A stretch of 64,000 nucleotides of DNA from an uncultured Gemmatimonadales bacterium (GTDB lineage: Bacteria; Gemmatimonadota; Gemmatimonadetes; Gemmatimonadales; GWC2-71-9): the NCBI GenBank assembly GCA_963779755.1, contig CAVZZO010000003.1, forward strand, positions 1,088,001-1,152,000. The letters are read 5' to 3'. Below, one piece after another: positions 1 to 21,470 of the stretch. Within the stretch, counting starts at the first letter, position 1. Each line of letters opens with the position of its first letter. The notes under the pieces are model-generated. The model worked only from the letters and a program-made list of their open reading frames with translations. It searched no databases and was not told the origin of the DNA. The position numbers and the translations under genes are program-made.

Positions 1-1218
1 CGCCCGGCACTGCCTGCGATGTACCTCGGCGCCGACTGGCGCAACGGGCAGAATCTGGTCTGGTTCTTCGATATTTCATCCCGCGCCCTGGGGCTGGCCG
101 CGCTCGTGCTTCTTCTGGCCTTGCTGGTCAGGCCTGAGCCCGGCGCCGGCGGGCTCGCCGCGCTGGCCGGCGCGACCGCCCTCACCACCGCGCTGAATCC
201 CATAGTGGGCCTGGCGGGGGCCGGCCTGCTCGGGGCATCACTTCTCGCCCTCGGCTGGCGATTCCACCGGCCGGCCCCGGCGTCCCGCGCGATGCCGCGC
301 GAGGCGCTCTGGAAAACCGCCGCCCTCGCCGCGGGAGTCCTGGGTGCGTTACCGACCTATATGGTTCTCCTGCGCCACTCGGGCGGAGCGGGCGGCCTGT
401 CCAATCCGGCTCAAGTGCAGCTCAAGATCCTCGCCCTGGGAGCCGGCGCCCTGGTCCTCGTTCCACTGGCGCTCCTGGGAGCGCGGGCAACCCGCAATGC
501 ATCCTCGCTCAGCGTGCACGCCGTTGCCCTCGCGGGCCTCGGCCTGCTGGCGGCGGCGGTCGCGATCCACCTGGAGAAGGGTAACGAGCACAACCTGGTC
601 AATGCCGCCGCGGTGCTGCTCGCGGTGCCAGCGGCCGGGTGGCTGGTGCAGCGCCTCGACGGGAGTTCCCGCCCACCCGCCGTGGGCCGGCGGCGAGTAT
701 TGCTCGCCGCGCTCCTGTTCCTCCCGGTGACGGCCGGCACCTGGTGGAGTTTTGACGGCCGCCCTGGCCTGCCGCTGCGCACCGCGGGAGGGCGGCTCCT
801 GCGGGAACCGCCCGGCCACCCGCTGGCGCGCTTCTACGACTGGACCGTCCGACACACCGACCCGCACGCCGTGTTTCTGGTGGACCCCTCGCAGCCGGTC
901 AAGATGTCGGGCAATGTGATGGAATTGCCCGCCTTCACCGGGCGGGAGATCTACGTGGGGCAATTGAACTACATGTCGAGTTCCTACCCGGACGTCCGCG
1001 CCCGGATGCAGTTGGCCCGCAAGGCCGAGGCGGGATTCCCGCTGGATGAACGGGACCTGGCCGGATTGCGGCGGCTCGGGCGGCCCGTGTACCTGGTGAG
1101 CTATCGTGCGACCGATCCGGCTCTGGCCGGACAGCTACGGGCGGCCTATGGCGCACCGGTCTTTGCGGACGGCTTTGTCGCAGTCTTTTCAGTGGTGCAA
1201 TCGTTGGCAGGGCACTGA
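1..1218 (+). CDS. Multi-pass membrane protein, probable GT-C-fold glycosyltransferase (5'-truncated by the window edge)
   Basis: Frame is open to position 1. Many hydrophobic helices are followed by a soluble C-terminal domain (WTVRHTDPHAVFL...PAFTGR) of the kind seen in GT-C-like proteins. Confidence 0.55.
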   Translation, partial: RPALPAMYLGADWRNGQNLVWFFDISSRALGLAALVLLLALLVRPEPGAGGLAALAGATALTTALNPIVGLAGAGLLGASLLALGWRFHRPAPASRAMPREALWKTAALAAGVLGALPTYMVLLRHSGGAGGLSNPAQVQLKILALGAGALVLVPLALLGARATRNASSLSVHAVALAGLGLLAAAVAIHLEKGNEHNLVNAAAVLLAVPAAGWLVQRLDGSSRPPAVGRRRVLLAALLFLPVTAGTWWSFDGRPGLPLRTAGGRLLREPPGHPLARFYDWTVRHTDPHAVFLVDPSQPVKMSGNVMELPAFTGREIYVGQLNYMSSSYPDVRARMQLARKAEAGFPLDERDLAGLRRLGRPVYLVSYRATDPALAGQLRAAYGAPVFADGFVAVFSVVQSLAGH

Positions 1219-1308
1219 CGAGCCTTCCGCGTCTTCCGCGCGACTTGCGAGCAGTGCACCGGATCCTCATCTTGGGTGCCCGGCTCGTTCCCAATCCCAG
1301 GAGGAGAA

Positions 1309-1959
1309 ATGCATATGCGCCCCCTGATTCCCTGCCTGCTGGCGGTCGGAGCCGTTCTGGCGTGCTCCGACAATGCGCCCACCCGCCCCGCCGACGCACC
1401 AATGGCCGCCCTCGCCAGCCTCCCGGCTCCGGGACAGGCGATCCCCACCGGCGAGCGTATTCATGGACAGAGCGTGCTCGAGGCGGTCTACGACGCCGAG
1501 CATGCCGGCGCGATCGGCTTCGTCAGTACGCCGATACACGCTCCGATGCACGCCAACGAGAAGGCCTGGGCGCCGATCTACATCGTCGTCTATCCCACGA
1601 ATTCCAGCGTGACGGGGACGCTGCTGTGCGAGGATATCCCGGCGGAGAACTGCCCCGACCACGGACCGGCGATCGCGGGGCTCGCACAGCAGATGCAGCC
1701 CGGAGTGTATGGAGGCGGGGTGCGGGGCCATGATCACCTGATGGATTACCCCGGAGGCGACGAGTTCAATGTTGCCTGGGAGCCCATCGTGGTGCTGTTC
1801 ACCAACAGCGCGGCCGCGAATCAGCACGTCCTGACGGACGCCCAGATCGATGCGATGGTGCAGAGCGGCGACGCGATCGAGATCCCGCTGCCTTCGGCCA
1901 CCTTCCATTGCGCGGCGGTAGCCCCGGCGCTGTGGAAGCGGTCGACGCCGATCAGCTGA
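1309..1959 (+). CDS. Lipoprotein of unknown function, His/Cys-rich
   Basis: GGAGGAG RBS precedes ATG 1309. Signal peptide ends in lipobox VLAC. Motifs CEDIPAENCPDH, GHDH and FHC. Confidence 0.7.
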   Translation: MHMRPLIPCLLAVGAVLACSDNAPTRPADAPMAALASLPAPGQAIPTGERIHGQSVLEAVYDAEHAGAIGFVSTPIHAPMHANEKAWAPIYIVVYPTNSSVTGTLLCEDIPAENCPDHGPAIAGLAQQMQPGVYGGGVRGHDHLMDYPGGDEFNVAWEPIVVLFTNSAAANQHVLTDAQIDAMVQSGDAIEIPLPSATFHCAAVAPALWKRSTPIS

Positions 1960-2045: not shown

Positions 2046-2777
2046 CTATCCCCGGCGATACTTCCAGAAGGTCCGCGAGCCGATGAACCAGTCGCGCAGG
2101 CCGATCTTCTTCCCTTCGGAACGGGACCGCGGGAAATAGCGGATCGGCACTTCGCGGATGGTGCAGCCCCGGGCGAGCAGCCGGGCGGTGATCTCGTGGT
2201 CCAGCTCGAACCCCGAGGATCCGAGCGGCAGCGATTGCACCAGAGCGGCGGGAAACAGCTTGAGCGCGGTCACGGTGTCGGTCAGGTAGGTGCCGGTGCA
2301 TGCCAGCGCCACCAGGCTCAGGCTCTGGCCGCCCAGGTAGGCGGGCCAGCTCTGGCCGGGATACTTGCCGGCCAGCAGGTTGCGCAGCGGCCCCGCCTCC
2401 GGATGCTTCAGATAGCGGCTCCCGTAGACCGCGTCCACCCCCTTCACGCCGAGCGCGCGCAGCATGGGGAGATAGTCCGCCGGATCGTATTCCAGATCCG
2501 CGTCCTGGATGATGAGATACGTCCCGGTGGCCAGCCGGATGCCGGCGCGCACCGCGGCGCCCTTGCCGCTGTTCCGCTCCAGCCGGTGCAGCCGGACATC
2601 GGGAAACCCCGCCACGATCTCCGGGGTCCGGTCGCGGGAACAGTCGTCCACCACGACGATTTCCCGGTCCACCCCGGCCGCCCGGAGATCGAGCGCGCGG
2701 ATCCGCTCCAGCAGCGTGCCGATGAAGCGTTCCTCGTTGTAGGCCGGGATGACGATGGACAATACCGGCAGGCTCAT
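2046..2777 (-). CDS. GT2 glycosyltransferase, DPM1/polyprenol-phosphate glycosyltransferase-like
   Basis: SIVIPAYNE, VVDDCSRD, NSGKGAA, IQDADLEYDP, GFELDHE and EGKKI motifs. Confidence 0.9.
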   Translation of the reverse strand: MSLPVLSIVIPAYNEERFIGTLLERIRALDLRAAGVDREIVVVDDCSRDRTPEIVAGFPDVRLHRLERNSGKGAAVRAGIRLATGTYLIIQDADLEYDPADYLPMLRALGVKGVDAVYGSRYLKHPEAGPLRNLLAGKYPGQSWPAYLGGQSLSLVALACTGTYLTDTVTALKLFPAALVQSLPLGSSGFELDHEITARLLARGCTIREVPIRYFPRSRSEGKKIGLRDWFIGSRTFWKYRRG

Positions 2778-3526
2778 GGAGCCTCCCGCATTCGCAGATA
2801 CTCCGCCACCCGTTCCAGCTCGGCGGGCGTATTGATTCCCACCGCCTCCCGGCGATCCTCCACCGCGAACGTCACCACCGGCCGGCGGCGCTGGAGCCAG
2901 GGAATGAAGGGCAGGAAGTTACGCTCGCCCGTTCCCGCGGCGGGCGCCGCCTCGGACGCATAGGCCGGCAGCAACTCCCCGTAGGTTGGCCCCCGCAGGG
3001 CGAACAATCCCATGTCGGCCTCTCCCACCGGGGGCATGCGGTCTCCCTCCCGCCGCTGCAGCACGCCGCTAATGGTCCCCTGCCCGTCGCGGGTGAAATG
3101 GATGTAGGGGTCGGGAGCCTGGATGGTGGGGAACGCCAGGGCCGGCGCGGGCGTGGCTCCCGCCGCCAGCGCCAGGCGCCGGACCGTCTCCGCCCCGACC
3201 GCCACCTGGTCGCACCAGGTGATCCAGATCTCCCCGGGCAGCGGATGCGGCAGGGCCACGCTCGCCGCCAGGATCGCATCCAGCATACCGGTGGGCTCCG
3301 GCTGCAGCGCCGGGAGGATGGATTCGCCGCGGCCGCGGGCAAAGCGGCCGAAGGCATCCCTGAATGCCGGGCTGATGACGACCACGAACCGGTCCACCAG
3401 CCCGGCGTAGCGCTCGAGGATGTGCTGCAGCATCGGTTTGCCGTTCACCGGCACCAGCATCTTGGGCAACTCGCTGCCCAGCCGGCTTCCCCGCCCCGCG
3501 GCCGGGACGATCAGGACGCGCCGCAT
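2774..3526 (-). CDS. Nucleotidyltransferase (NTP-transferase, GlmU N-terminal-like)
   Basis: Start MRRVLIVPAAGRGSRLG..PK, then QPEPTG, WCD and C-terminal GINT. Confidence 0.85.
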   Translation of the reverse strand: MRRVLIVPAAGRGSRLGSELPKMLVPVNGKPMLQHILERYAGLVDRFVVVISPAFRDAFGRFARGRGESILPALQPEPTGMLDAILAASVALPHPLPGEIWITWCDQVAVGAETVRRLALAAGATPAPALAFPTIQAPDPYIHFTRDGQGTISGVLQRREGDRMPPVGEADMGLFALRGPTYGELLPAYASEAAPAAGTGERNFLPFIPWLQRRRPVVTFAVEDRREAVGINTPAELERVAEYLRMREAP

Positions 3527-4176
3527 GCCGCCGGTCCGGAGAGAAAGCCGGCCAGCGCCGCCAGGTCCGGCAGCGCGGCCAGGAAGCGGGGGTGCCGGAG
3601 GCGCAGCCCGCTGCGGACACTCACCACCGTGGCGCCCGCGGCCAGGCCGGCGGCGATTCCGGCCTCGCTGTCTTCCACCACCAGCGCCGCCTCCGGCCCG
3701 GTTCCGCAACGGGCCAGCACCAGCCGGTAGGTTTCGGGATCGGGCTTGCCCCGGCGGATATCGTCCCCGGTCACTACCACGGGGAAGAACTCCTCCAGGC
3801 CGGCATGCCGGAGCACCCGGTCCGCGGTGGCGGAGGAGGCTCCCGTACCCAGCGCCAGCCTGCGGCCCTGCCGGCGCAGGTCGCGCAGCGTCGGCACGCT
3901 GTCGGGAAACAGCAGCGCCGACCCGGCCACCAGCACCCGCGCCCGCTCCTGCTTGAACCGGACCCAGCCGGCGCGTTCGGCATCGTCCGCCGCCAGCGAC
4001 CCGGTGATTTCCGCCACCACCTCCGCCGTCGTGCGGCCCGCGATGCTGGCGTAATCGGGGCCCCGGATGCCGATTCTGGCCCACAACTCGGAAAAGGCGC
4101 GCTCATGACACGGCGTGGTATCAACCAGGACGCCGTCCAGATCGAAGACGATCAGGCCGGACGGATCCGGGCTCAC
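3511..4176 (-). CDS. HAD-family phosphatase (beta-PGM/CbbY-like)
   Basis: FDLDGVLVD motif I, KPDPE, and VEDSEAG motif IV. Confidence 0.9.
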   Translation of the reverse strand: MSPDPSGLIVFDLDGVLVDTTPCHERAFSELWARIGIRGPDYASIAGRTTAEVVAEITGSLAADDAERAGWVRFKQERARVLVAGSALLFPDSVPTLRDLRRQGRRLALGTGASSATADRVLRHAGLEEFFPVVVTGDDIRRGKPDPETYRLVLARCGTGPEAALVVEDSEAGIAAGLAAGATVVSVRSGLRLRHPRFLAALPDLAALAGFLSGPAACGAS

Positions 4177-6266
4177 TTGGGCAGGCTGACGGCGCCGGGT
4201 TGGTAATCCTCGATAGCGGGCCGGACGTCGGCGCCGCTGTCGCCCGGCTCCAGCGGGGAGCCGCCCCAGCGTCCCCGGAGGATGGCCAGCAGGGATCGCA
4301 CCCCCTCGCCCACGGTGGTGCGGTGGACCTTCTCCGGGGAAATGGGGAAGTAGTAGACCGGGACCTCCAGAATCTCGGCCCGCCGCCGCAGCAACCGGGC
4401 GAGCAGCACATGATTGAACTCGCGCCGGCTCCAGATGCCCGGAAGGGAGCGCAGCCAGGAGGAGCGCACCGCTCGCACCCCGGACAGCGTGTCCGAGATA
4501 TAGCGCCCGTAGAGCAGGAGACAGGCCAGGCTCAGGAGATGGCTGCCGGCATAGCTGACGGCGGCCTTGAGACTGCGGTGGCGGTAGAGCAGACGGTAGG
4601 CCTGCCGGATATCGTTGACCGAGAGCCGGCGGCTGCCCCAGACGGCGTCGATCCGCCCGCCGGGCAGATGGTTCAGCAGCGCCACGACGTCGTCCCCCTT
4701 GTACATCCCGGAGGACTCGAAGAGCACCAGATATTCGTAGGTCCGGTCCTGCGCGATCCGGTCCAGTGCGGCGTCCGTTGTGGACCCCAGGCCGGCGAGG
4801 TTGTGCAGTCCGAAGGGCAGGGAGGCCTCGAAACCGGCATCGAACGACTCCGCCCCCTCGTAGAACACCGTGGGCACCACCGGAACGCGCTCCACCCCGG
4901 CCCGGATGATCTCGACGATGCTCTGCCCCACCTTGTTGAGCGAGCCGCCGCCCAGCAGCGCCACCGCGACGCGGGGGCGTTCGCCCCGGCGCAGGAAGGA
5001 CTTGATGAACGGCGTGAGCACACGGGACGCGTCGTGCCGGCCGGAGACGCCGTCCTCGTAGTTGCCGATGCGCACCAGCCGGGGATCCTCCAGGCTCTCC
5101 AGCCGCCCCAGCGGCACGTAGGGTGTGCTGGTCTCCGGGTGCCCCGGCTCATTGAGCAGGAAATGCGTGATGAGACAGGGCGTCGGGATGTTCACCCGGT
5201 TCTTCTCCCGCAGGTAGTACTGCGCCCGGGTAATGAGATCCACCGCGCTGCTGCCGGAAATTTCGGCGTCTTCCACCAGGTTGGTGATCAGGACCTTGAC
5301 CGCGTGGAGATTCCGGGCCACCGCCGCTCCCAGGCCGGGCGTCAGGTAGGAGGGGAAGAGGCTCGAATGCTGGGTGCCGGGTGCATAGACGATGAGGTCG
5401 GCCTCGGCCAGGCGGCGCAGCAGCTCCGGGTTGGCGGCCGGGGTGACCTCGTGCGCGCCGACGTAACGCTGCAGCTCGTGCGCCGGCCCGGCATTGAGCC
5501 GGTCGCGGTCGGCGGCCGCGGGCGGCCGGTCCAGCAGGAAGATGTCCTTCAGGTCATGGGGCCGGTCGGCGCTCACGATCTCGGCTTCGGAACCGAGCAG
5601 CCGCCCGTTCCGGTCCAGCGCCACCAGCCACGCGTTCTCGCCCTGGGTGACGTTCAGGATCAGGCCGGCGGGAAGGCCCAGCAGGGCGCAGTAATCCTCC
5701 ACCGCCGGGTTGAACCGGCGGCCGCAGTGGAGGAAGCATCCCGCGAAGACCAGATTGCCCAGACTGCAGTCGGCAAAGGCAAAGGGAAAACCGCTGCGGT
5801 CCAGCTCGGCCTGCACCAGACGCAGCCGGCTCCCCACCGCGGAACGCACGGCGGGATCGATCCCGGCCGTCATCTGGAGCATGCGGCGTCCGGCATCGTC
5901 GTCCGGCGCCGGCGCCGGGGCCGGCGCGCCGGCCAGGCCGAGAATCCGCCGCGCATCCGCCGCCTCACAGGGATCCGGCAGGCGGAAATCCAGCAGGGCG
6001 ATCAGCTGCTCATCGCAGGTCCGCAGCTCCATCGCCAGCCGGGATGCGTTCTTGCGAAAGTCCGACGGGCCCAGGCAGTCGGGCAGGAACCGGCGGATTT
6101 CGCCGGTGGAGAGCCCGTCGTCATAGCCGTTGATGGCGAGGGTCAGCACGATCCGCTCGTTCTTGAGCAGCTCGCGCGACAGCACGCCCGAGCCCCGGCC
6201 GCCGGTGAAGAGGACCACCCGCACCGGCTCCGCGGGCAGCATCGTCGCGCGGTCGGGGTGGGGCAT
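4173..6266 (-). CDS. YvcK/GlmR-CofD family protein fused to a degenerate DPM1-like GT2 domain
   Basis: N-part: VLFTGGRGSG, YDDGLSTG, GPSDFRKN, SLGNL, ADLIVYAPGTQHSSLFPS, KVLITNL, RHD. C-part: DAVWGSRR, ISDTLSG, ILEVPVYY, with ESS where DxD is expected. Confidence 0.8.
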   Translation of the reverse strand: MPHPDRATMLPAEPVRVVLFTGGRGSGVLSRELLKNERIVLTLAINGYDDGLSTGEIRRFLPDCLGPSDFRKNASRLAMELRTCDEQLIALLDFRLPDPCEAADARRILGLAGAPAPAPAPDDDAGRRMLQMTAGIDPAVRSAVGSRLRLVQAELDRSGFPFAFADCSLGNLVFAGCFLHCGRRFNPAVEDYCALLGLPAGLILNVTQGENAWLVALDRNGRLLGSEAEIVSADRPHDLKDIFLLDRPPAAADRDRLNAGPAHELQRYVGAHEVTPAANPELLRRLAEADLIVYAPGTQHSSLFPSYLTPGLGAAVARNLHAVKVLITNLVEDAEISGSSAVDLITRAQYYLREKNRVNIPTPCLITHFLLNEPGHPETSTPYVPLGRLESLEDPRLVRIGNYEDGVSGRHDASRVLTPFIKSFLRRGERPRVAVALLGGGSLNKVGQSIVEIIRAGVERVPVVPTVFYEGAESFDAGFEASLPFGLHNLAGLGSTTDAALDRIAQDRTYEYLVLFESSGMYKGDDVVALLNHLPGGRIDAVWGSRRLSVNDIRQAYRLLYRHRSLKAAVSYAGSHLLSLACLLLYGRYISDTLSGVRAVRSSWLRSLPGIWSRREFNHVLLARLLRRRAEILEVPVYYFPISPEKVHRTTVGEGVRSLLAILRGRWGGSPLEPGDSGADVRPAIEDYQPGAVSLPK

Positions 6267-6268
6267 GC

Positions 6269-7594
6269 TCAGCTTCCCTCCAGCGCCAGCGCGCCGGCCG
6301 GTCCGGACAGCCCGACCTCCTCCGGGGCCTGCGCGAGCCGGTGCCAGCGGGCCAGCAGCTCGCCCTGGTAGCGGAGCAGCCACAGCAGGAAGAGCAGCAG
6401 CGGCCCGGCCTTCACCAGGCTCACCGCCAGCAGGGCGGCGTGGCTCGTCAGGGGGACGTGACTTCGGAACGCCATCACCAGGATCAGGTTCTGCGCCGGC
6501 ATCAGCGCGAAGAGGCAGACCAGCAGGAGCCGCGCTCCCCTGCTCCAGCTTCGCCACTGGGCCACCAGGAAGAGCAGCGGGATGAAGAGCAGCGACAGGT
6601 AATGCTCCCAGACGACCTGGACCGCCAGCAGGCTGAGTGCGACCGCCAGGAACATATCGAGACCGCGGCGGGCGCGCGTTTCCGGAAGCAGCCGGTGGGC
6701 GCGCCAGGCCAGCCACACGATGGTGGCGGCACCCAACCCGCGCAAGCCGAGGCCGATCAGGCCGGGGAGCGGGCCGCCCTCGCCGAATACCGGCCCGGAA
6801 TCACGGATGGGGCGGAAGGCGTCGCCCAGGATGGCCAGCGAGCTGTTGAAGAACCAGGGCGAAGGCTTCCGGCTCCCCGCGATCAGGATGTCGAGAAACT
6901 GCCGGTGAATCGGCCATCCCAGCAGGAGGATGGAACCGGCGGCGGCGGCGAGAAATATCCCGGCGAGCCACAGGGCGAACCTCCGGCCCCCCAGAAAGAA
7001 CAGCAGCGCCGGAATGAACACGAAGCCCGGTTTGATCAGCACCACGAGCAGCAGGGCCAGCGCGGCCCCCGGCCATAGCCGCCGGCGGTAGGCCCGGGAC
7101 GCCGCGACCACCAGGAGAAACACGAACGGCGTCGTCTGCCCGCCCACCCGGTAGATGGTCCAGAACGGCTGGTACAGCGCGACCAGGAGCAGGATGACGA
7201 GCGCGAAGGATTGCCGGGCGTCCACCGCGTCGAGGCCGGCTGCTTCGGCGGTCTGCCGGTAGAGGCAGAACAGGCCCACGGCAAAGGCGATGGTTCCCGC
7301 CAGTTTGAACAGCACCAGCGCGACGGGAGCACTGAAGAGCGCCAGGGGGGCGTACAGCCAGGCGGAGAGTGGCGCGCCCCAGAAGGCCATGCCTCCCTGG
7401 GGAGCGGCCCCGGCGATCAGGGAACCGGGGCGATAGATCTCGCCCAATTCGCCGGCTGCGGCACGACGCCCGGTATCGTAGAAATTCGCGAAGTCCCATC
7501 CCGCCCCCGCCGGGATCAGGATCCCGATGAGGGCCGGCACGCCCAGAACGAGGAGGCCGGTGATCAGGAGCCGGCGACGGCTGATGGGCGACAT
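6269..7594 (-). CDS. GT87/DUF2029-like GT-C membrane glycosyltransferase
   Basis: WDFANFY, GGQ, IKP and VWEHY motifs with about 10 TM helices. Confidence 0.8.
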   Translation of the reverse strand: MSPISRRRLLITGLLVLGVPALIGILIPAGAGWDFANFYDTGRRAAAGELGEIYRPGSLIAGAAPQGGMAFWGAPLSAWLYAPLALFSAPVALVLFKLAGTIAFAVGLFCLYRQTAEAAGLDAVDARQSFALVILLLVALYQPFWTIYRVGGQTTPFVFLLVVAASRAYRRRLWPGAALALLLVVLIKPGFVFIPALLFFLGGRRFALWLAGIFLAAAAGSILLLGWPIHRQFLDILIAGSRKPSPWFFNSSLAILGDAFRPIRDSGPVFGEGGPLPGLIGLGLRGLGAATIVWLAWRAHRLLPETRARRGLDMFLAVALSLLAVQVVWEHYLSLLFIPLLFLVAQWRSWSRGARLLLVCLFALMPAQNLILVMAFRSHVPLTSHAALLAVSLVKAGPLLLFLLWLLRYQGELLARWHRLAQAPEEVGLSGPAGALALEGS

Positions 7595-7715
7595 CAGGAC
7601 TGAGGCGATAATTCGGATGCCGGCCGTCTCGCCGGCCGGCGGTGCGGGAGCGCGGAGCGGAAAACCCGGCAGGCCGGGCGCCGGTTCGGAGCGGAGCGGC
7701 GCCGGACCCGGCCCC

Positions 7716-7877
7716 TCACCCGCGCCGGAACAGCGAACCCACCTTCTTTGCCACCCCGACCACCTGGCGCCAGAAGATCATCAGGACGCCCCCGATCGCC
7801 CCCAGGATGGAGGTGAGGGGGAGAATCTGATCCGGCCCGACATAGAGAAGATGGAGACTCAGGAGATGCAGTGTCAT
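7716..7877 (-). CDS. Small (53 aa) single-TM protein with a YxGP motif
   Basis: MTLHLLSLHLLYVGPDQILPLTSILGAIGGVLMIFWRQ...; purine-rich stretch upstream; follows a sigma54 motif. Confidence 0.65.
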   Translation of the reverse strand: MTLHLLSLHLLYVGPDQILPLTSILGAIGGVLMIFWRQVVGVAKKVGSLFRRG

Positions 7878-7963
7878 CCGGCAGACCCTTTCTTCGGCCC
7901 CGGTAAGAGAATTACTGGCCCCCGCTGCGGGAAGGGGCGTTTGCTGGTGCTGCCTGAGGCAGG

Positions 7964-7978
7964 GCAACCCCTGTGCCA
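7964..7978 (-). promoter_or_regulatory. Sigma54 -24/-12 promoter
   Basis: TGGCACAGGGGTTGC on the minus strand, a full match to TGGCAC-N5-TTGC. Confidence 0.75.
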
Positions 7979-8075
7979 GTCACTCCCCGCAGAGTCCAGC
8001 ACAGCGGGAGAGCAGCGGAGCCAATCTGATACCCAGCCTGGCGGATAGCTATGACGGCCGCCACAGACTGTTGCA

Positions 8076-10016
8076 TCAACGCAACGGTAGGGCTGTCAGC
8101 GAGATGCCAGCCTGGAGGCTCGGCGATCCGGCCGCGGATTGCGACAGGCTCCGGAGCCGCTGCAGCAGACGCTGGAACCGGGCATCCTGGCTGGGCAGCG
8201 TATCAAGGTCGTGGTGAGCGCCCGGATCGGACCGCAGATCGTAGAGTTCGGTTGCTCCGGACTCGAGTTGGATCACCTGCCACGCATTCCGGGAAACCAG
8301 CGACCAGACCATACCCTGCCCGGTCGGCCAGGTCTCGGGGTTTCCGGCCAGGAAAGGTGCCTCCAGCAGCACCGGATCGGTCGGCATGCCCGGCTCGACC
8401 AATGCGGCTCTGATTCCTGCCCCGGGGAAGGACACGTCCCGAATACCGGTCCACTGCATGATGGCCTCGGGCACGGCGGCCAGGCTGACCGGCGCCGGCA
8501 CGGTCGTCCCGGCCCATGGCGCATCCGCGCGCCATACGATGAGCGGTACCCGGATCTGCTCCGGATACAATCCTCCGCCGTGATGGATCATCTGGTGCTC
8601 ACCGAAGGCTTCGCCATGGTCGCTCGTAATGATTACGACCGTGTTCTGCAGCAAGCCGCGGCCTCGCAGACTGTCGAGCAAGCCGCCGATCTGGTCGTCG
8701 AGATACGACAGGCTCTCGTCGTAGCGCTGCCTCCACAGGGCCAGCACGGCGCTATCCGGAGGCGCCGCGTTCTCGTCCCAGGCCCCGATCTCTACCCTGC
8801 GCGGGTGCCACTCCGGCACCTTGGCCTCCGGCCCGAAGCGGCCGCGGTACGGCGGGGGAGGTAGATAGGGGGCATGCTGATCCATGTAATTGAGAAAGGC
8901 GAAGAACGGCCGCTCCCGACCCTGTCCCACCCAGTCCAGAAATTCCCGGTTGACAAGGGCGGCATTTTTCCGGCCCGGAATGTCCGGGAAGCCCATCCGG
9001 GGGAGGGCCCAGTAGGCCATCCGCCGCCCCAGTTCGGTGCGGCTGACCACGTCGCCGAAGCGGCCGAAATAATCTTCGTAATGGAGGAAGCCGCGGGCGA
9101 GTCCCGAGATCCGGCCCGTGAAGAAGACGTTCCCGACGAAGCCGCCCGTTCGGTAGCCGTGATCGCGCAACACCTCGGCGATGGTCGGGTACCGGCCATC
9201 GAGAAAGGCGTGGTGCGGGGTACCGGCCCGATGCACGTGCACGGGCAACCCCGTCATGAGCGTGGCATGCGAGGGGAGCGTGGTCGGAGCCCCGGCGAAC
9301 GCCTCCTGAAACAGGGCACCCGCACGGGCGAGCGAATCGAGCCGCGGGGTGGTGGGCCGGGCGTAGCCGTAAGCCGACAGATGATCGGCTCGCTCGGTGT
9401 CGAGGACGATCAGGAGCACGTTCTTCCCGTTCCCGCGTACCGGGCCCAGCCGGGCCAGCGCCAGGCGCTCCATCAGGGGGGGCAGGAGAAACCCGCCTAG
9501 CGCCCCGATCACCAGGACCGCCCCTCCCAGACTGGGCAGCGCCCGGCGCATCCGGCGGATCCAGAGGTCCCGCCGCCGCAGGTAGGAACGCAACACGACG
9601 GCGGTTACTCCGGCCGCCAGGATCAGAGCCGCGAGGGGCGACAACAGGTTGCGTTGCAGCCGGCTCAGCATCAGGGCGGAGATCAGCGCCAGCACGGCGG
9701 TCAGCGGAATGTCCCATGGGAAACGGGGCCGGATCGTCGCCGGGAGAACCAGGATGAGAGCGACGGCCAGATAGGCGAGCGCGTAGAACACCGGTGCGAC
9801 CAGCAGGACGGGCGGTGCCGTGCCGTTGTCCCAGGAGAGTCCACCCGGGATGTGGCTGAGGACCAGCGAACTGCCGGCTTCGATGAAGCCGTAGGCCAGC
9901 CCCCAGAGCAGCCCGATCCGGATCAGCTGGAGGGCGGCTTCACGGCGGCCCCCGGCCCCGGTGGCGGGGCGCCCGTCGAGCGCCCGGACAGGTGCAGCGA
10001 CCTGCCTCGCCGACAA
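8076..10016 (-). CDS. Membrane-anchored sulfatase-like hydrolase/transferase (alkaline phosphatase superfamily); start uncertain
   Basis: About five N-terminal TMs, then LIVLDTERADH, TLPSHATLMTG, NYMDQHAPY and TSDHGE..GEH. Confidence 0.85.
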   Translation of the reverse strand: MSARQVAAPVRALDGRPATGAGGRREAALQLIRIGLLWGLAYGFIEAGSSLVLSHIPGGLSWDNGTAPPVLLVAPVFYALAYLAVALILVLPATIRPRFPWDIPLTAVLALISALMLSRLQRNLLSPLAALILAAGVTAVVLRSYLRRRDLWIRRMRRALPSLGGAVLVIGALGGFLLPPLMERLALARLGPVRGNGKNVLLIVLDTERADHLSAYGYARPTTPRLDSLARAGALFQEAFAGAPTTLPSHATLMTGLPVHVHRAGTPHHAFLDGRYPTIAEVLRDHGYRTGGFVGNVFFTGRISGLARGFLHYEDYFGRFGDVVSRTELGRRMAYWALPRMGFPDIPGRKNAALVNREFLDWVGQGRERPFFAFLNYMDQHAPYLPPPPYRGRFGPEAKVPEWHPRRVEIGAWDENAAPPDSAVLALWRQRYDESLSYLDDQIGGLLDSLRGRGLLQNTVVIITSDHGEAFGEHQMIHHGGGLYPEQIRVPLIVWRADAPWAGTTVPAPVSLAAVPEAIMQWTGIRDVSFPGAGIRAALVEPGMPTDPVLLEAPFLAGNPETWPTGQGMVWSLVSRNAWQVIQLESGATELYDLRSDPGAHHDLDTLPSQDARFQRLLQRLRSLSQSAAGSPSLQAGISLTALPLR

Positions 10017-10039
10017 CCCGGGCGTGGACTCTTCCGGGC

Positions 10040-10324
10040 TCAAGCCACCATCCGGTTGTACATCGCGCCGATGAGCCGACCCAGGGCATAGCCGAACACG
10101 AAGGCGTACACGAACCCGATCAGGCTGCCCAGAAAGGTGACCCGGTAGCCGGGAAAGAAGACGTGCAGCATCTGCAGGTGCTGCCCGGCGTTGGGGCCGC
10201 CCCGCAACACCAGGATGTTGGTGGCGAAAAAGAGACCGAACCCCAGGAGCAGGCCGAAGGCGATCCCCCACGCGCGGCCGTTCAACTGAAGCAGAGTATG
10301 TTGCACTTCGTCGTTGGTCGTCAT
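10040..10324 (-). CDS. Small membrane protein, paralog of the adjacent gene
   Basis: 94 aa; AWGIAFGLLLG...FFPGYRVTFLGSLIG. Confidence 0.75.
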   Translation of the reverse strand: MTTNDEVQHTLLQLNGRAWGIAFGLLLGFGLFFATNILVLRGGPNAGQHLQMLHVFFPGYRVTFLGSLIGFVYAFVFGYALGRLIGAMYNRMVA

Positions 10325-10331
10325 GGCTCGC

Positions 10332-10703
10332 TCAGATGTGGTCGAGAAAATCCCGGGTCTGGGCCAGCTCGGCACGAGTCCGGATCAGGAACAGGGAAAC
10401 GGCGACGACGAAATTGCGGCAGAACGCCAGGAACCATCCGCCGACGAAGCCGATGAGAAACCCCCAGCCCCATCCGATCAGTGCTCCGGTTACCGAGACA
10501 CGATAGCCTCTGAAGTACTGGGCCAGGAGGACCAGGCCCTCCCCCTCCCCCCGCAGAACCGCGATGAGCGTCAGCGCGGCAACGGCGGTGCCGACCGCCG
10601 TGCCCATCGCGACGCCGAAGGCGCGCTTGTGCAGGGGGGCGAACGCCAGCGCAAGGCGGCGGCTCAGGCCTTCCGGTGCGGCCGCGGGGGCGGTTGACGT
10701 CAT
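10332..10703 (-). CDS. Small membrane protein, paralog of the adjacent gene
   Basis: 123 aa; AFGVAMGTAVG...YFRGYRVSVTGALIG. Confidence 0.75.
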   Translation of the reverse strand: MTSTAPAAAPEGLSRRLALAFAPLHKRAFGVAMGTAVGTAVAALTLIAVLRGEGEGLVLLAQYFRGYRVSVTGALIGWGWGFLIGFVGGWFLAFCRNFVVAVSLFLIRTRAELAQTRDFLDHI

Positions 10704-19579: not shown

Positions 19580-19595
19580 AGCAAACCCGGTGCCA
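19580..19595 (-). promoter_or_regulatory. Sigma54 -24/-12 promoter
   Basis: TGGCACCGGGTTTGCT on the minus strand, about 105 nt before GTG 19473. Confidence 0.75.
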
Positions 19596-21455: not shown

Positions 21456-21470
21456 GCAAACATGGTGCCA
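21456..21470 (-). promoter_or_regulatory. Sigma54 -24/-12 promoter
   Basis: TGGCACCATGTTTGC on the minus strand, upstream of ATG 21419. Confidence 0.75.

Follow-up and report, generated by a model that had tools for sequence, protein, structure and literature searches.

What does a bacterium make with a protein that joins a relative of YvcK and CofD to a glycosyltransferase? The question is raised by a locus in an uncultured Gemmatimonadales bacterium (assembly GCA_963779755.1, contig CAVZZO010000003.1, positions 1,088,001 to 1,152,000), analysed here as one stretch of 64,000 nucleotides with a G+C content of about 70%. We call this whole stretch the window, and all positions below refer to it. 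The cassette region is read on the minus strand. Its five genes encode a glycosyltransferase of family 87 (GT87), the fusion protein, a haloacid dehalogenase-like (HAD) hydrolase, a nucleotidyltransferase (NT) and a free glycosyltransferase of family 2 (GT2). The initial annotation had proposed that they form a self-contained module, which activates an unusual sugar or phospho-metabolite, loads it on a lipid carrier and transfers it to a surface glycan. We estimate at about even the chance that the operon is a lineage-specific version of a widespread, uncharacterised cytoplasmic cassette, which builds a polyprenyl-phosphate-linked sugar donor for an extracytoplasmic glycosyltransferase of the GT-C fold.

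In the fusion protein, residues 17-373 match the Pfam family CofD (PF01933, E 3e-18, 66 bits, cut-off 30; the match covers 1-251 of the 290 profile positions). The AlphaFold2 (AF2) model of the whole protein has two domains (predicted local distance difference test, pLDDT, 71.9; predicted TM-score, pTM, 0.62). Using a profile that covers both clades of the family (A2; the second clade is described below), we matched five YvcK/UPF0052 structures with E-values of 1e-22 to 2e-16, and this search of solved structures found no CofD or FbiA chain at E ≤ 10. The structure of the N-domain aligns to YvcK 2o2z with Z 17.9 (266 residues, root-mean-square deviation 4.5, 26% identity), to FbiA 6uw3 with Z 13.1 and to CofD with Z about 12. 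Since YvcK gives the higher Z, and profile matches where CofD and FbiA give none, the N-domain is, judging by profile and model, a branch of the CofD superfamily that resembles YvcK and carries a helical insertion (about 100 residues, at about residues 86-160). It lies below the curated cut-offs: TIGR01826 scores 54.7 against 196 bits, and the best NCBIfam match, TIGR04357 'GAK system CofD-like', scores 71 against 340 bits. Thus, the earlier description of a complete YvcK/CofD-family domain holds for PF01933 and for the fold, and fails for CofD proper, since YvcK is nearer both by profile and by Z.

The Pfam name 'CofD' and the label 'CofD family protein' in public records (which name the fusion only as 'CofD family' or 'YvcK family') would suit a divergent CofD of the F420 or a related deazaflavin pathway. 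The genome, which is 97% complete, argues otherwise. It contains no match to PF01996 (CofE), its two CofH-like radical SAM matches (305 and 288 bits) are below the cut-off of 374, and the fusion is its only PF01933 gene. The fusion partners and neighbours of the family are all glycan enzymes. On these grounds, together with the lack of a CofD or FbiA profile match, a role in F420 synthesis was rejected, and we regard its probability as next to negligible.

An alignment by hidden Markov model (HMM) recovers the motifs of YvcK in the N-domain, namely GGxG, DDG.S.G, P.D.R, GN and PG...S..P. About 30 polar residues, many of them Arg or Lys, are invariant across both clades, which are about 30% identical to each other. 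The invariant residues beyond the YvcK motifs are RKN, R95, D166, N186, E227, K324, D333 and H411. D49 and D50, invariant or nearly so, align with the DD pair of YvcK. The metal-binding aspartates of FbiA are D45 and D57. Work on GlmR names the DD pair of the Listeria protein as the predicted active site and reports that GlmR from three Firmicutes made UDP-GlcNAc from GlcNAc-1-phosphate and UTP in vitro (PMC10128056). In FbiA, two aspartates and the beta-phosphate of GDP hold the catalytic metal (PMC7253369).

The C-terminal part of the fusion turned out to be a paralogue of the free GT2. The Pfam search with PF00535 gave no match in this domain, and NCBIfam gave a weak AglJ-like match at residues 494-643. 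Its modelled fold is closest to dolichyl-phosphate mannose synthase (DPMS) 9ep0 (Z 13.3, 209 residues aligned) and to ArnC 9bhe (Z 13.0). Thus, the HMM and structure check of the fusion gene, suggested by the initial annotation, yielded two domains, YvcK/CofD-like followed by GT-A of the DPMS/ArnC type. The domain aligns with the free GT2 of the window without large gaps (32% identity, E 2e-10). In the numbering of the free GT2, D44/D45 are replaced by P/T, D92-A-D94 by E-S-S, E96 by M and R217 by I; the arginine of the GSR motif is kept (R121 in the free GT2, R546 in the fusion). In the alignment with the DPMS of Pyrococcus furiosus (PfDPMS, 5mlz), these positions correspond to D39, D89/D91, Q93, R202 and R117. 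The PfDPMS paper assigns base binding to Asp39, the DXD motif to Asp89/Asp91, the acceptor loop to Arg202 and the lipid phosphate to Arg117 (PMC5526996). Therefore, the donor and metal side is lost, and part of the lipid-phosphate side is left. The motif FESSGMY is nearly invariant across 25 aligned members of the clade, so that the earlier remark about a GT2 domain lacking DxD is right for the window clade (DAD to ESS). Judged by its residues, the fused GT2 domain of this clade is dead at the donor site. A predicted complex of this domain (residues 425-668) with the free GT2 scored 0.00; it was run without controls and counts neither way.

Table 1. Features of the cassette and its flanks in the window.
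Feature	Position	Strand	Remarks
C-terminal part (405 aa) of a 630-aa protein with 10 transmembrane (TM) segments, probably GT-C	1-1218	+	convergent with the cassette
DPM1/DPMS-like polyprenyl-phosphate GT2 (free GT2)	2046-2777	-	243 aa, soluble, DAD intact
GlmU-N-domain-like nucleotidyltransferase (NT)	2774-3526	-	250 aa
HAD-IA hydrolase	3511-4176	-	221 aa; beta-phosphoglucomutase / sugar-phosphatase / pyrophosphatase group
Whole fusion gene	4173-6266	-	697 aa; no predicted TM segment
Degenerate DPMS/ArnC-like GT2 (GT-A) domain	4263-4982	-	fusion residues about 429-668
YvcK/CofD-superfamily domain	4992-6233	-	fusion residues about 12-425
GT87-family GT-C glycosyltransferase	6269-7594	-	441 aa, at least 8 hydrophobic segments
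Leader open reading frame	7716-7877	-	53 aa; one predicted TM/hydrophobic segment, residues 18-36
Sigma54-type promoter motif TGGCACAGGGGTTGC	7964-7978	-	-24 GG / -12 GC; about 87 nt 5' of the leader ATG
Sulfatase / alkaline-phosphatase-superfamily membrane protein	8076-10000 or 8076-10271	-	4 TM segments and PF00884 (4e-47); start codon uncertain

The free GT2 itself matches PF00535 with E 8e-31 and has no predicted TM segment. Its best NCBIfam matches are AglJ (74 of 325 bits), dolichyl-phosphate hexose transferase (56 of 375), PpgS (46 of 370) and ArnC (45 of 529), all below the cut-offs. PfDPMS 5mlz is its best match among Protein Data Bank entries (PDB; profile E 1.6e-22, residues 25-233), and its DAD, GSR and PR..EGKK motifs align to DADLQH, GSR and R..GESK of that enzyme. 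This supports the earlier view of the protein as DPM1-like, with the acceptor loop (A-loop) motif R..G.K in place. Mean column identity across 22 orthologues is 74%.

The NT matches PF12804 (3e-19) and aligns at residues 3-248 with the GlmU models, with an E-value of 7e-16 and a score far below the equivalog cut-offs. By sequence, the nearest solved structure is the uridyltransferase domain of GlmU (6e-12), and the alignment spans both lobes (residues 1-248). The protein carries AAGRGSRLGSELPK, which fits the G-x-G-(S/T)-R...K loop. It resembles GlmU-type sugar-1-phosphate nucleotidyltransferases. The comparison with CofC made earlier was not borne out. The HAD protein, whose sequence has DLDG, matches PF00702 (1e-31) and PF13419 (9e-27), and scores 115 bits against TIGR02009, below its cut-off of 153. 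Its nearest solved structures by sequence are the sugar phosphatase TM_1254, a putative beta-phosphoglucomutase (beta-PGM) and CbbY, among which the roles of mutase, phosphatase and pyrophosphatase are not separable.

It might be thought that the product is soluble, for instance a compatible solute or a primer of phosphodiester or glycoside type, made by the logic of glucosyl-3-phosphoglycerate synthase (GpgS) with a phosphatase or of CofC with CofD. Indeed, the C-domain of the fusion gives Z 12.2-12.6 with GpgS and MpgS, a tie with DPMS and ArnC within 1 Z; a synthase followed by a HAD phosphatase is the usual design of such pathways, and CofC and CofD activate and transfer small phospho-acids. 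However, both GT2 units match DPMS over the region of the interface helix and the A-loop, with GSR and R..G.K, and the best NCBIfam matches of the free GT2 are dolichyl-phosphate and undecaprenyl-phosphate transferases. The recurrent neighbours of the cassette are GT-C-like membrane proteins and GtrA, and in one relative (P0099) GT87 is fused to the protein itself. We consider a soluble product very unlikely.

We then asked how widely this arrangement occurs. The fusion has 1543 homologous proteins at E ≤ 0.001, of which the top 120 share 52-90% identity across 92-100% of the length. The full-length homologues listed have 638-750 aa, except for the 1165-aa GT87 fusion P0099; YvcK itself is a stand-alone protein of about 320 aa. 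Relatives of the fusion were found in 411 species genomes of GTDB using alignment A1 (a single-protein query of the same collection gave 75 pattern matches, of which 0 were confirmed). The locus counts are based on the top 80 loci from each scan. In the window clade, 80 of 80 kept loci come from metagenome-assembled genomes, mainly of Acidobacteriota (Vicinamibacterales, Blastocatellia) and Gemmatimonadota, with a smaller share from Eisenbacteria, Latescibacterota and some labelled Proteobacteria. Within the phylum of the window the fusion is a patchy accessory trait: of the 201 genomes sampled, 3 have it, this one among them.

Neighbours within 3 kb were counted in the 60 of these 80 loci where the fusion is flanked by 2.5 kb or more on each side. 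NT was present in 60/60, the free GT2 in 58/60, HAD in 20/60 and GT87 in 18/60; 17/60 had all four. In 48 of the 60, fusion, NT and GT2 followed in this order on one strand, and 9 had a divergent NT/GT2 pair. NT and the free GT2 are thus near-universal and HAD and GT87 a minority, so that the conserved core is NT, fusion and GT2 rather than five genes. Of the earlier proposal of a five-gene unit, the neighbourhood of these three stands, and HAD and GT87 are not fixed; in the wider family, HAD belongs to the unit too. Gene calls in related loci were made with a simple script based on open reading frames (ORFs) and G+C at third codon positions (GC3), which misses some genes. Radical SAM (387 aa) or B12-binding radical SAM (526 aa) genes lie directly 5' of the fusion in Vicinamibacterales-type loci (L021, L022, L025, L065, L016 and others).

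An exhaustive HMMER search extended the family to 1573 representatives, including a distant clade whose members share about 30% identity with the window protein. The cassette occurs on at least 549 metagenome stretches. Its layout in the distant clade is HAD, NT, CofD+GT2, GT2, and the 80 loci collected range in G+C from 27% to 71%. Source names in this clade include Bdellovibrionota, Oligoflexia, Dependentiae, Elusimicrobia, Brocadiaceae and Bryobacterales, with one cultured strain, Bacteriovorax sp. BSW11_IV, whose protein P0466 joins NT, CofD and GT2. A tblastn search of plasmids with the distant-clade protein P0148 gave single-domain matches only and no full-length fusion. In 28 of the 80 loci the fusion is present with 2.5 kb or more on each side; among these, NT is adjacent in 25, HAD in 21 and a free GT2 of about 243 aa in 21; HAD and NT are fused in 8. 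A Methyltransf_23 gene occurs in 29 of the 80 loci, and in L089-L094 such a gene and one for a 514-aa radical SAM protein precede HAD. This suggests that the sugar or a substituent is methylated or otherwise modified in the radical SAM lineages. The fused GT2 of this clade passes the Pfam cut-off and keeps the NE, VDGGSTD, D-x-E, GSR and R..GKK motifs. Because both clades carry two GT2 units, the GT2 pair looks older than the split between them (we infer this without a tree).

Natural fusion proteins tie the activities together. Four proteins join NT, CofD and GT2 (P0143, P0146, P0155, P0157), one joins HAD, NT, CofD and GT2 with a canonical DAD (P0194), one joins NT and CofD (P0251), and P0099 joins GT87, CofD and a GT2-like unit. 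Therefore, four activities are linked at the level of a single polypeptide. The linkage of the genes exceeds chance, as it is kept in related loci and in these fusions. The neighbourhood search called for by the initial annotation thus shows that the linkage recurs in both clades, with fusion and synteny kept elsewhere, and the claim that the genes form one functionally linked module is supported by conserved synteny and by Rosetta-stone fusions.

How could the cassette work? In a first step, the GlmU-like NT would make a nucleoside diphosphate sugar (NDP-sugar) from a sugar-1-phosphate and a nucleoside triphosphate. HAD could supply the sugar-1-phosphate as a mutase of the beta-PGM type, or pull the reaction forward as a phosphatase or pyrophosphatase; the HAD+NT fusions fit all three roles alike. 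The free DPMS-like GT2 would then load the sugar on polyprenyl phosphate at the inner face of the membrane. In the third step, the fusion would dock on the same lipid carrier via its GT2-like domain, and the YvcK/CofD-like domain would carry out a further transfer, again nucleotide-dependent, on the sugar bound to the lipid. In analogy to CofD and FbiA, it would most likely move X-phosphate from NDP-X to a sugar hydroxyl with release of the nucleoside monophosphate; this specific chemistry is a tentative proposal. Finally, the finished donor would be flipped, and GT87 would pass its head group on to an acceptor in the envelope. Observed are the identities of the domains, the lost donor-site residues, the conserved linkage and the natural fusions; from homology, fusions and gene neighbourhood we infer the lipid carrier, the order of the steps, the substrate and catalysis by the YvcK/CofD-like domain. 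We read the carrier as a lipid because both GT2 units are closest to PfDPMS, ArnC and GtrB and GT87 is PimE-like, and because a GtrA-family gene and proteins with 8-13 TM segments flank the cassette in other lineages.

A catalytic N-domain is favoured for three reasons. The approximately 30 invariant polar residues, D49/D50 among them, are more than sensors usually keep at this distance. NT is fused directly before the domain, as expected for the hand-over of an activated intermediate. A GT2 domain that is dead yet highly conserved fits the presentation of a lipid-linked substrate. It is possible, though less likely than not, that the N-domain is a phosphotransferase acting on a polyprenyl-phosphate-linked substrate held by the fused GT2 or GT2-like domain. 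In one variant, the lipid-linked sugar would receive a phosphodiester-linked group, either sugar-1-phosphate or a different X-phosphate taken from the NDP-X that NT makes. In the other, sugar-1-phosphate would be coupled straight to the carrier, and the protein would represent a new class of phosphoglycosyl transferases.

Alternatively, the N-domain could be a non-catalytic UDP-sugar sensor like GlmR/YvcK, which through the dead GT2 regulates or scaffolds the free GT2 and/or NT, so that donor synthesis follows the nucleotide-sugar pool. YvcK rather than CofD is the closer relative of the domain, and a pseudo-enzyme unit that is a paralogue of the GT2 next to it suits the formation of a heteromer. 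Bacillus subtilis YvcK binds UDP-glucose (UDP-Glc) and UDP-GlcNAc and modulates GlmS (PMC5482804, PMC7525490). Set against this are the same invariant polar residues and the same fusion of NT directly before the domain, and we find a pure sensor doubtful.

The in vitro uridyltransferase activity of the three GlmR proteins and the predicted catalytic DD pair, which is kept here, also allow the N-domain to be a second nucleotidyltransferase. There would then be two lines, from NT to the free GT2 and from the YvcK-like domain to the fused GT2, and two lipid-linked sugars. Two GT2 units are present in both clades, several different GT-C-like partners stand beside the cassette, and the idea fits the distant clade. 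In the window clade, however, the fused GT2 has no donor or metal residues, so that the second line ends nowhere, and the direct fusion of NT with the YvcK-like domain is left unexplained. We judge this arrangement unlikely. A defence system was also considered and rejected, since a PADLOC scan of six proteins gave no match.

Several points weigh against a catalytic phosphotransferase within a lipid-linked cassette. The family has no member with a known substrate, product or activity. YvcK and GlmR are best known as regulators that bind UDP-sugars, so that the N-domain could be a sensor. In the distant clade, the fused GT2 keeps the metal-binding Asp, the Glu and the R..GKK loop, so that the third step leaves two apparently active DPMS-like GT2s of that clade unexplained. 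HAD and GT87 are within 3 kb in a minority of window-clade loci, as counted above (where absent, their genes may lie in another part of the genome), and since the related loci are kin, the counts overstate independent support. The genome has no match to PF04138, the GtrA flippase family, at its 97% completeness. The model of the fusion is ligand-free and, with its pLDDT, only of moderate confidence.

The presumed periplasmic user of the lipid-linked donor is GT87. The protein matches PF09594 (E 4e-10, 40.2 bits at a cut-off of 25), and its AF2 model (pLDDT 89.8, pTM 0.90) is best matched in the PDB by PimE 9dm5 (E 3e-6, TM-score 0.70); 9dm5 and 9dm7 are the only two PDB matches at E ≤ 0.001 (TM-score 0.70-0.71). 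The earlier identification as GT87 thus holds, with a PimE-like GT-C both by Pfam and by fold. In its first loop W33, D34, F35, N37, F38, Y39 and D40 are invariant in 23 sequences. The catalytic aspartate of PimE is D58, in the first extracytoplasmic loop. The gene is the sole GT87 gene of the genome, and in relatives GT87 and the CofD-GT2-like part form one frame of about 1130-1165 aa (P0099; G180:C6:85846-87816).

It turned out that GT87 is one of several interchangeable large membrane partners. Other loci have a 749-aa PMT_2-like protein with 13 TM segments or proteins with 10-12 TM segments that belong to no Pfam family (the 630-aa protein of Table 1 is one of them), and the distant clade has an 8-TM family of 528 aa and a GtrA-family gene beside the cassette (GtrA seen in L091). 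Within 5 kb of the fusion, 53/61 and 23/34 loci encode a protein of 400 aa or more that has 7 or more TM segments, compared with 36% of random 12-kb windows of this genome; the loci are related, so this is not a statistical test. The sulfatase-domain gene of the window, whose start is uncertain because its longest ORF overlaps the next gene, sits between leader and GT87 in L013 and occurs also in L011, L018, L045, L054 and L075. The gene for the truncated 630-aa protein is complete in the adjoining stretch (L161 7326-9218), where it has a weak match to DUF2298 (2e-5, below the cut-off). It was found in 11/60 related loci and shows a weak relationship to F3, a 12-TM family present in Vicinamibacterales loci.

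Every element of the operon as first described, five coupled genes behind a full sigma54 motif and a small leader gene, was confirmed on the minus strand. The spacer between leader and GT87 is 121 nt, the stop of GT87 and the start of the fusion are separated by 2 nt, fusion and HAD overlap in GTGA, HAD and NT overlap by 16 nt, and NT and GT2 overlap in ATGA. The exact motif TGGCAC-N5-TTGC has 3 matches in the window at 0.12 expected, and 0/100 shuffles reach 3. It also lies 5' of leader homologues in L011 and L013, that is, in 2/3 related loci holding the leader. The Sigma54_activat family has at least 13 strong matches in the genome, 0 of them within the window. Between 1900 and 8200 we found no sigma70-like promoter, and the 3 terminator-like matches in this interval are within the shuffle expectation of 2.2. 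The motif suggests that the promoter of the cassette is of the sigma54-dependent type, and transcription is predicted to start there, 5' of the gene for the small membrane peptide. The spacer between leader and GT87 was considered as an attenuator or terminator and rejected, because its fold does not surpass that of shuffles (z 0.32) and nothing in it is flagged by the terminator scan. The two further exact motifs are at 19581-19595(-), about 108 nt 5' of ORF 19473-19003, and at 21456-21470(-), about 37 nt 5' of the PMT_2-type GT-C gene 21419-19770; several glycan genes of the locus may therefore be sigma54-dependent.

The leader family comprises 114 homologous clusters of 43-92 aa, and all source names given are Gemmatimonadota. 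Copies 70-73% identical lie 5' of a GT87 or sulfatase-domain gene in L002, L011 and L013, and in this genome the leader gene is single copy. Because it is far commoner than the fusion, the leader is not specific to the cassette.

Around the cassette, further glycan genes were observed. A large locus at 10779-33595 encodes a GT2, an NAD-epimerase/dehydratase, two GT4 enzymes, two amine-oxidase-like flavoproteins, another GT2, a PMT_2 GT-C, a fusion of polysaccharide deacetylase, DUF3473 and GT2, a second deacetylase, an asparagine-synthase-like protein, a UDP-Glc/GDP-Man dehydrogenase-like protein and an 803-aa acyltransferase_3 protein. At 10040-10375(-) there is a gene for a 111-aa, 2-TM protein with a sub-threshold 'holin_4' match (39.6 against 70 bits). 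Its homologues, often as tandem pairs, lie a few kb 5' of the cassette in Blastocatellia-type loci; they could be small subunits of a flippase, or they are unrelated. The cassette and the convergent gene for the membrane protein are separated by a 227-aa ORF (1276-1959, plus strand) that has a high GC3 and belongs to no Pfam family. Before the start of the window (L161 = G000:C3:1080001-1089300, 3668-9218) genes for an LPG_synthase_TM protein, a GT2 and the 630-aa protein follow each other. The same trio also comes after the cassette in the Gemmatimonadales loci L003, L006 and L007, and it has the appearance of another lipid-linked-sugar system, which converges on the cassette. In the Vicinamibacterales loci L026, L038-L040, L046, L055, L059 and L069 a 739-aa protein with CotH-kinase and FGE-sulfatase domains, a DedA/VTT-domain protein and a 327-aa GT2 are encoded a few kb from the cassette.

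The known three-component systems of periplasmic glycosylation are GtrA/GtrB/GtrV, ArnC/ArnE-F/ArnT and the mycobacterial PpgS/Rv3779. As in these systems, a DPMS/GtrB/ArnC-like GT2 would load polyprenyl phosphate and a GT-C, here GT87, would act outside the cytoplasm, as known here from the genes; GtrA-family genes accompany the distant-clade cassette as in the Gtr systems. Unlike them, the cassette has its own NT and HAD, the fusion of the YvcK/CofD-like domain with a second GT2 is obligatory, the genome at hand lacks a GtrA family member, and the GT-C partner changes by lineage. With CofC/CofD (FbiD/FbiA) the cassette shares an NT coupled, and in relatives fused, to a PF01933-superfamily domain, a fold match and an acidic pair at the N-terminal motif; it differs in the absence of a sequence-level match, in the GlmU-like NT, in the missing F420 context and in the fusion to GT2. 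YvcK/GlmR (UPF0052) is the closest relative in fold and sequence and shares its motifs. In contrast to it, the N-domain has the helical insertion, extra invariant residues and a score below the TIGR01826 cut-off; its full-length matches are always fused to a GT2 unit, and it stands in a glycan-gene neighbourhood. The free GT2 resembles DPMS of P. furiosus in its conserved motifs and human DPM1 in having no TM segment, whereas here a donor-site-dead paralogue of it is fused to a YvcK-like domain. GT87 resembles PimE in its Pfam family, above the cut-off, and in its best structural match, at 20% identity. Unlike that of PimE, the host is of the Gram-negative type and makes no phosphatidylinositol mannosides, and GT87 of relatives is sometimes fused to the CofD-GT2 protein.

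Full-text searches of open-access papers and preprints found no description of the fusion or the cassette, which agrees with the initial annotation that knew of no described pathway with this gene set. The nearest remark is about a CofD-family pseudogene beside an NDP-nucleotidyltransferase and a synthase in Mycoplasma fermentans PG18 (PMC11658790). The cassette thus appears to be of a known kind, making lipid-linked sugar donors for GT-C enzymes, but with an undescribed enzyme module.

If the N-domain is indeed a phosphotransferase of this cassette, the fusion would bring the CofD superfamily into glycoconjugate synthesis for the first time. Its product would be an unusual phosphodiester-bridged lipid-linked donor, installed by a GT-C such as GT87 on the envelopes of Gemmatimonadota, Acidobacteriota, Bdellovibrionota and others. 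YvcK and GlmR are widespread and matter for envelope homeostasis, and their biochemistry is disputed between sensor and enzyme. A branch fused to NT on one side and to a polyprenyl-phosphate glycosyltransferase on the other offers a defined context for testing this fold. The dead but strongly conserved GT2 domain is a pseudo-enzyme apparently retained as a carrier-binding module, and the cassette as a whole would mark an undescribed envelope modification in dominant, mostly uncultured soil phyla.

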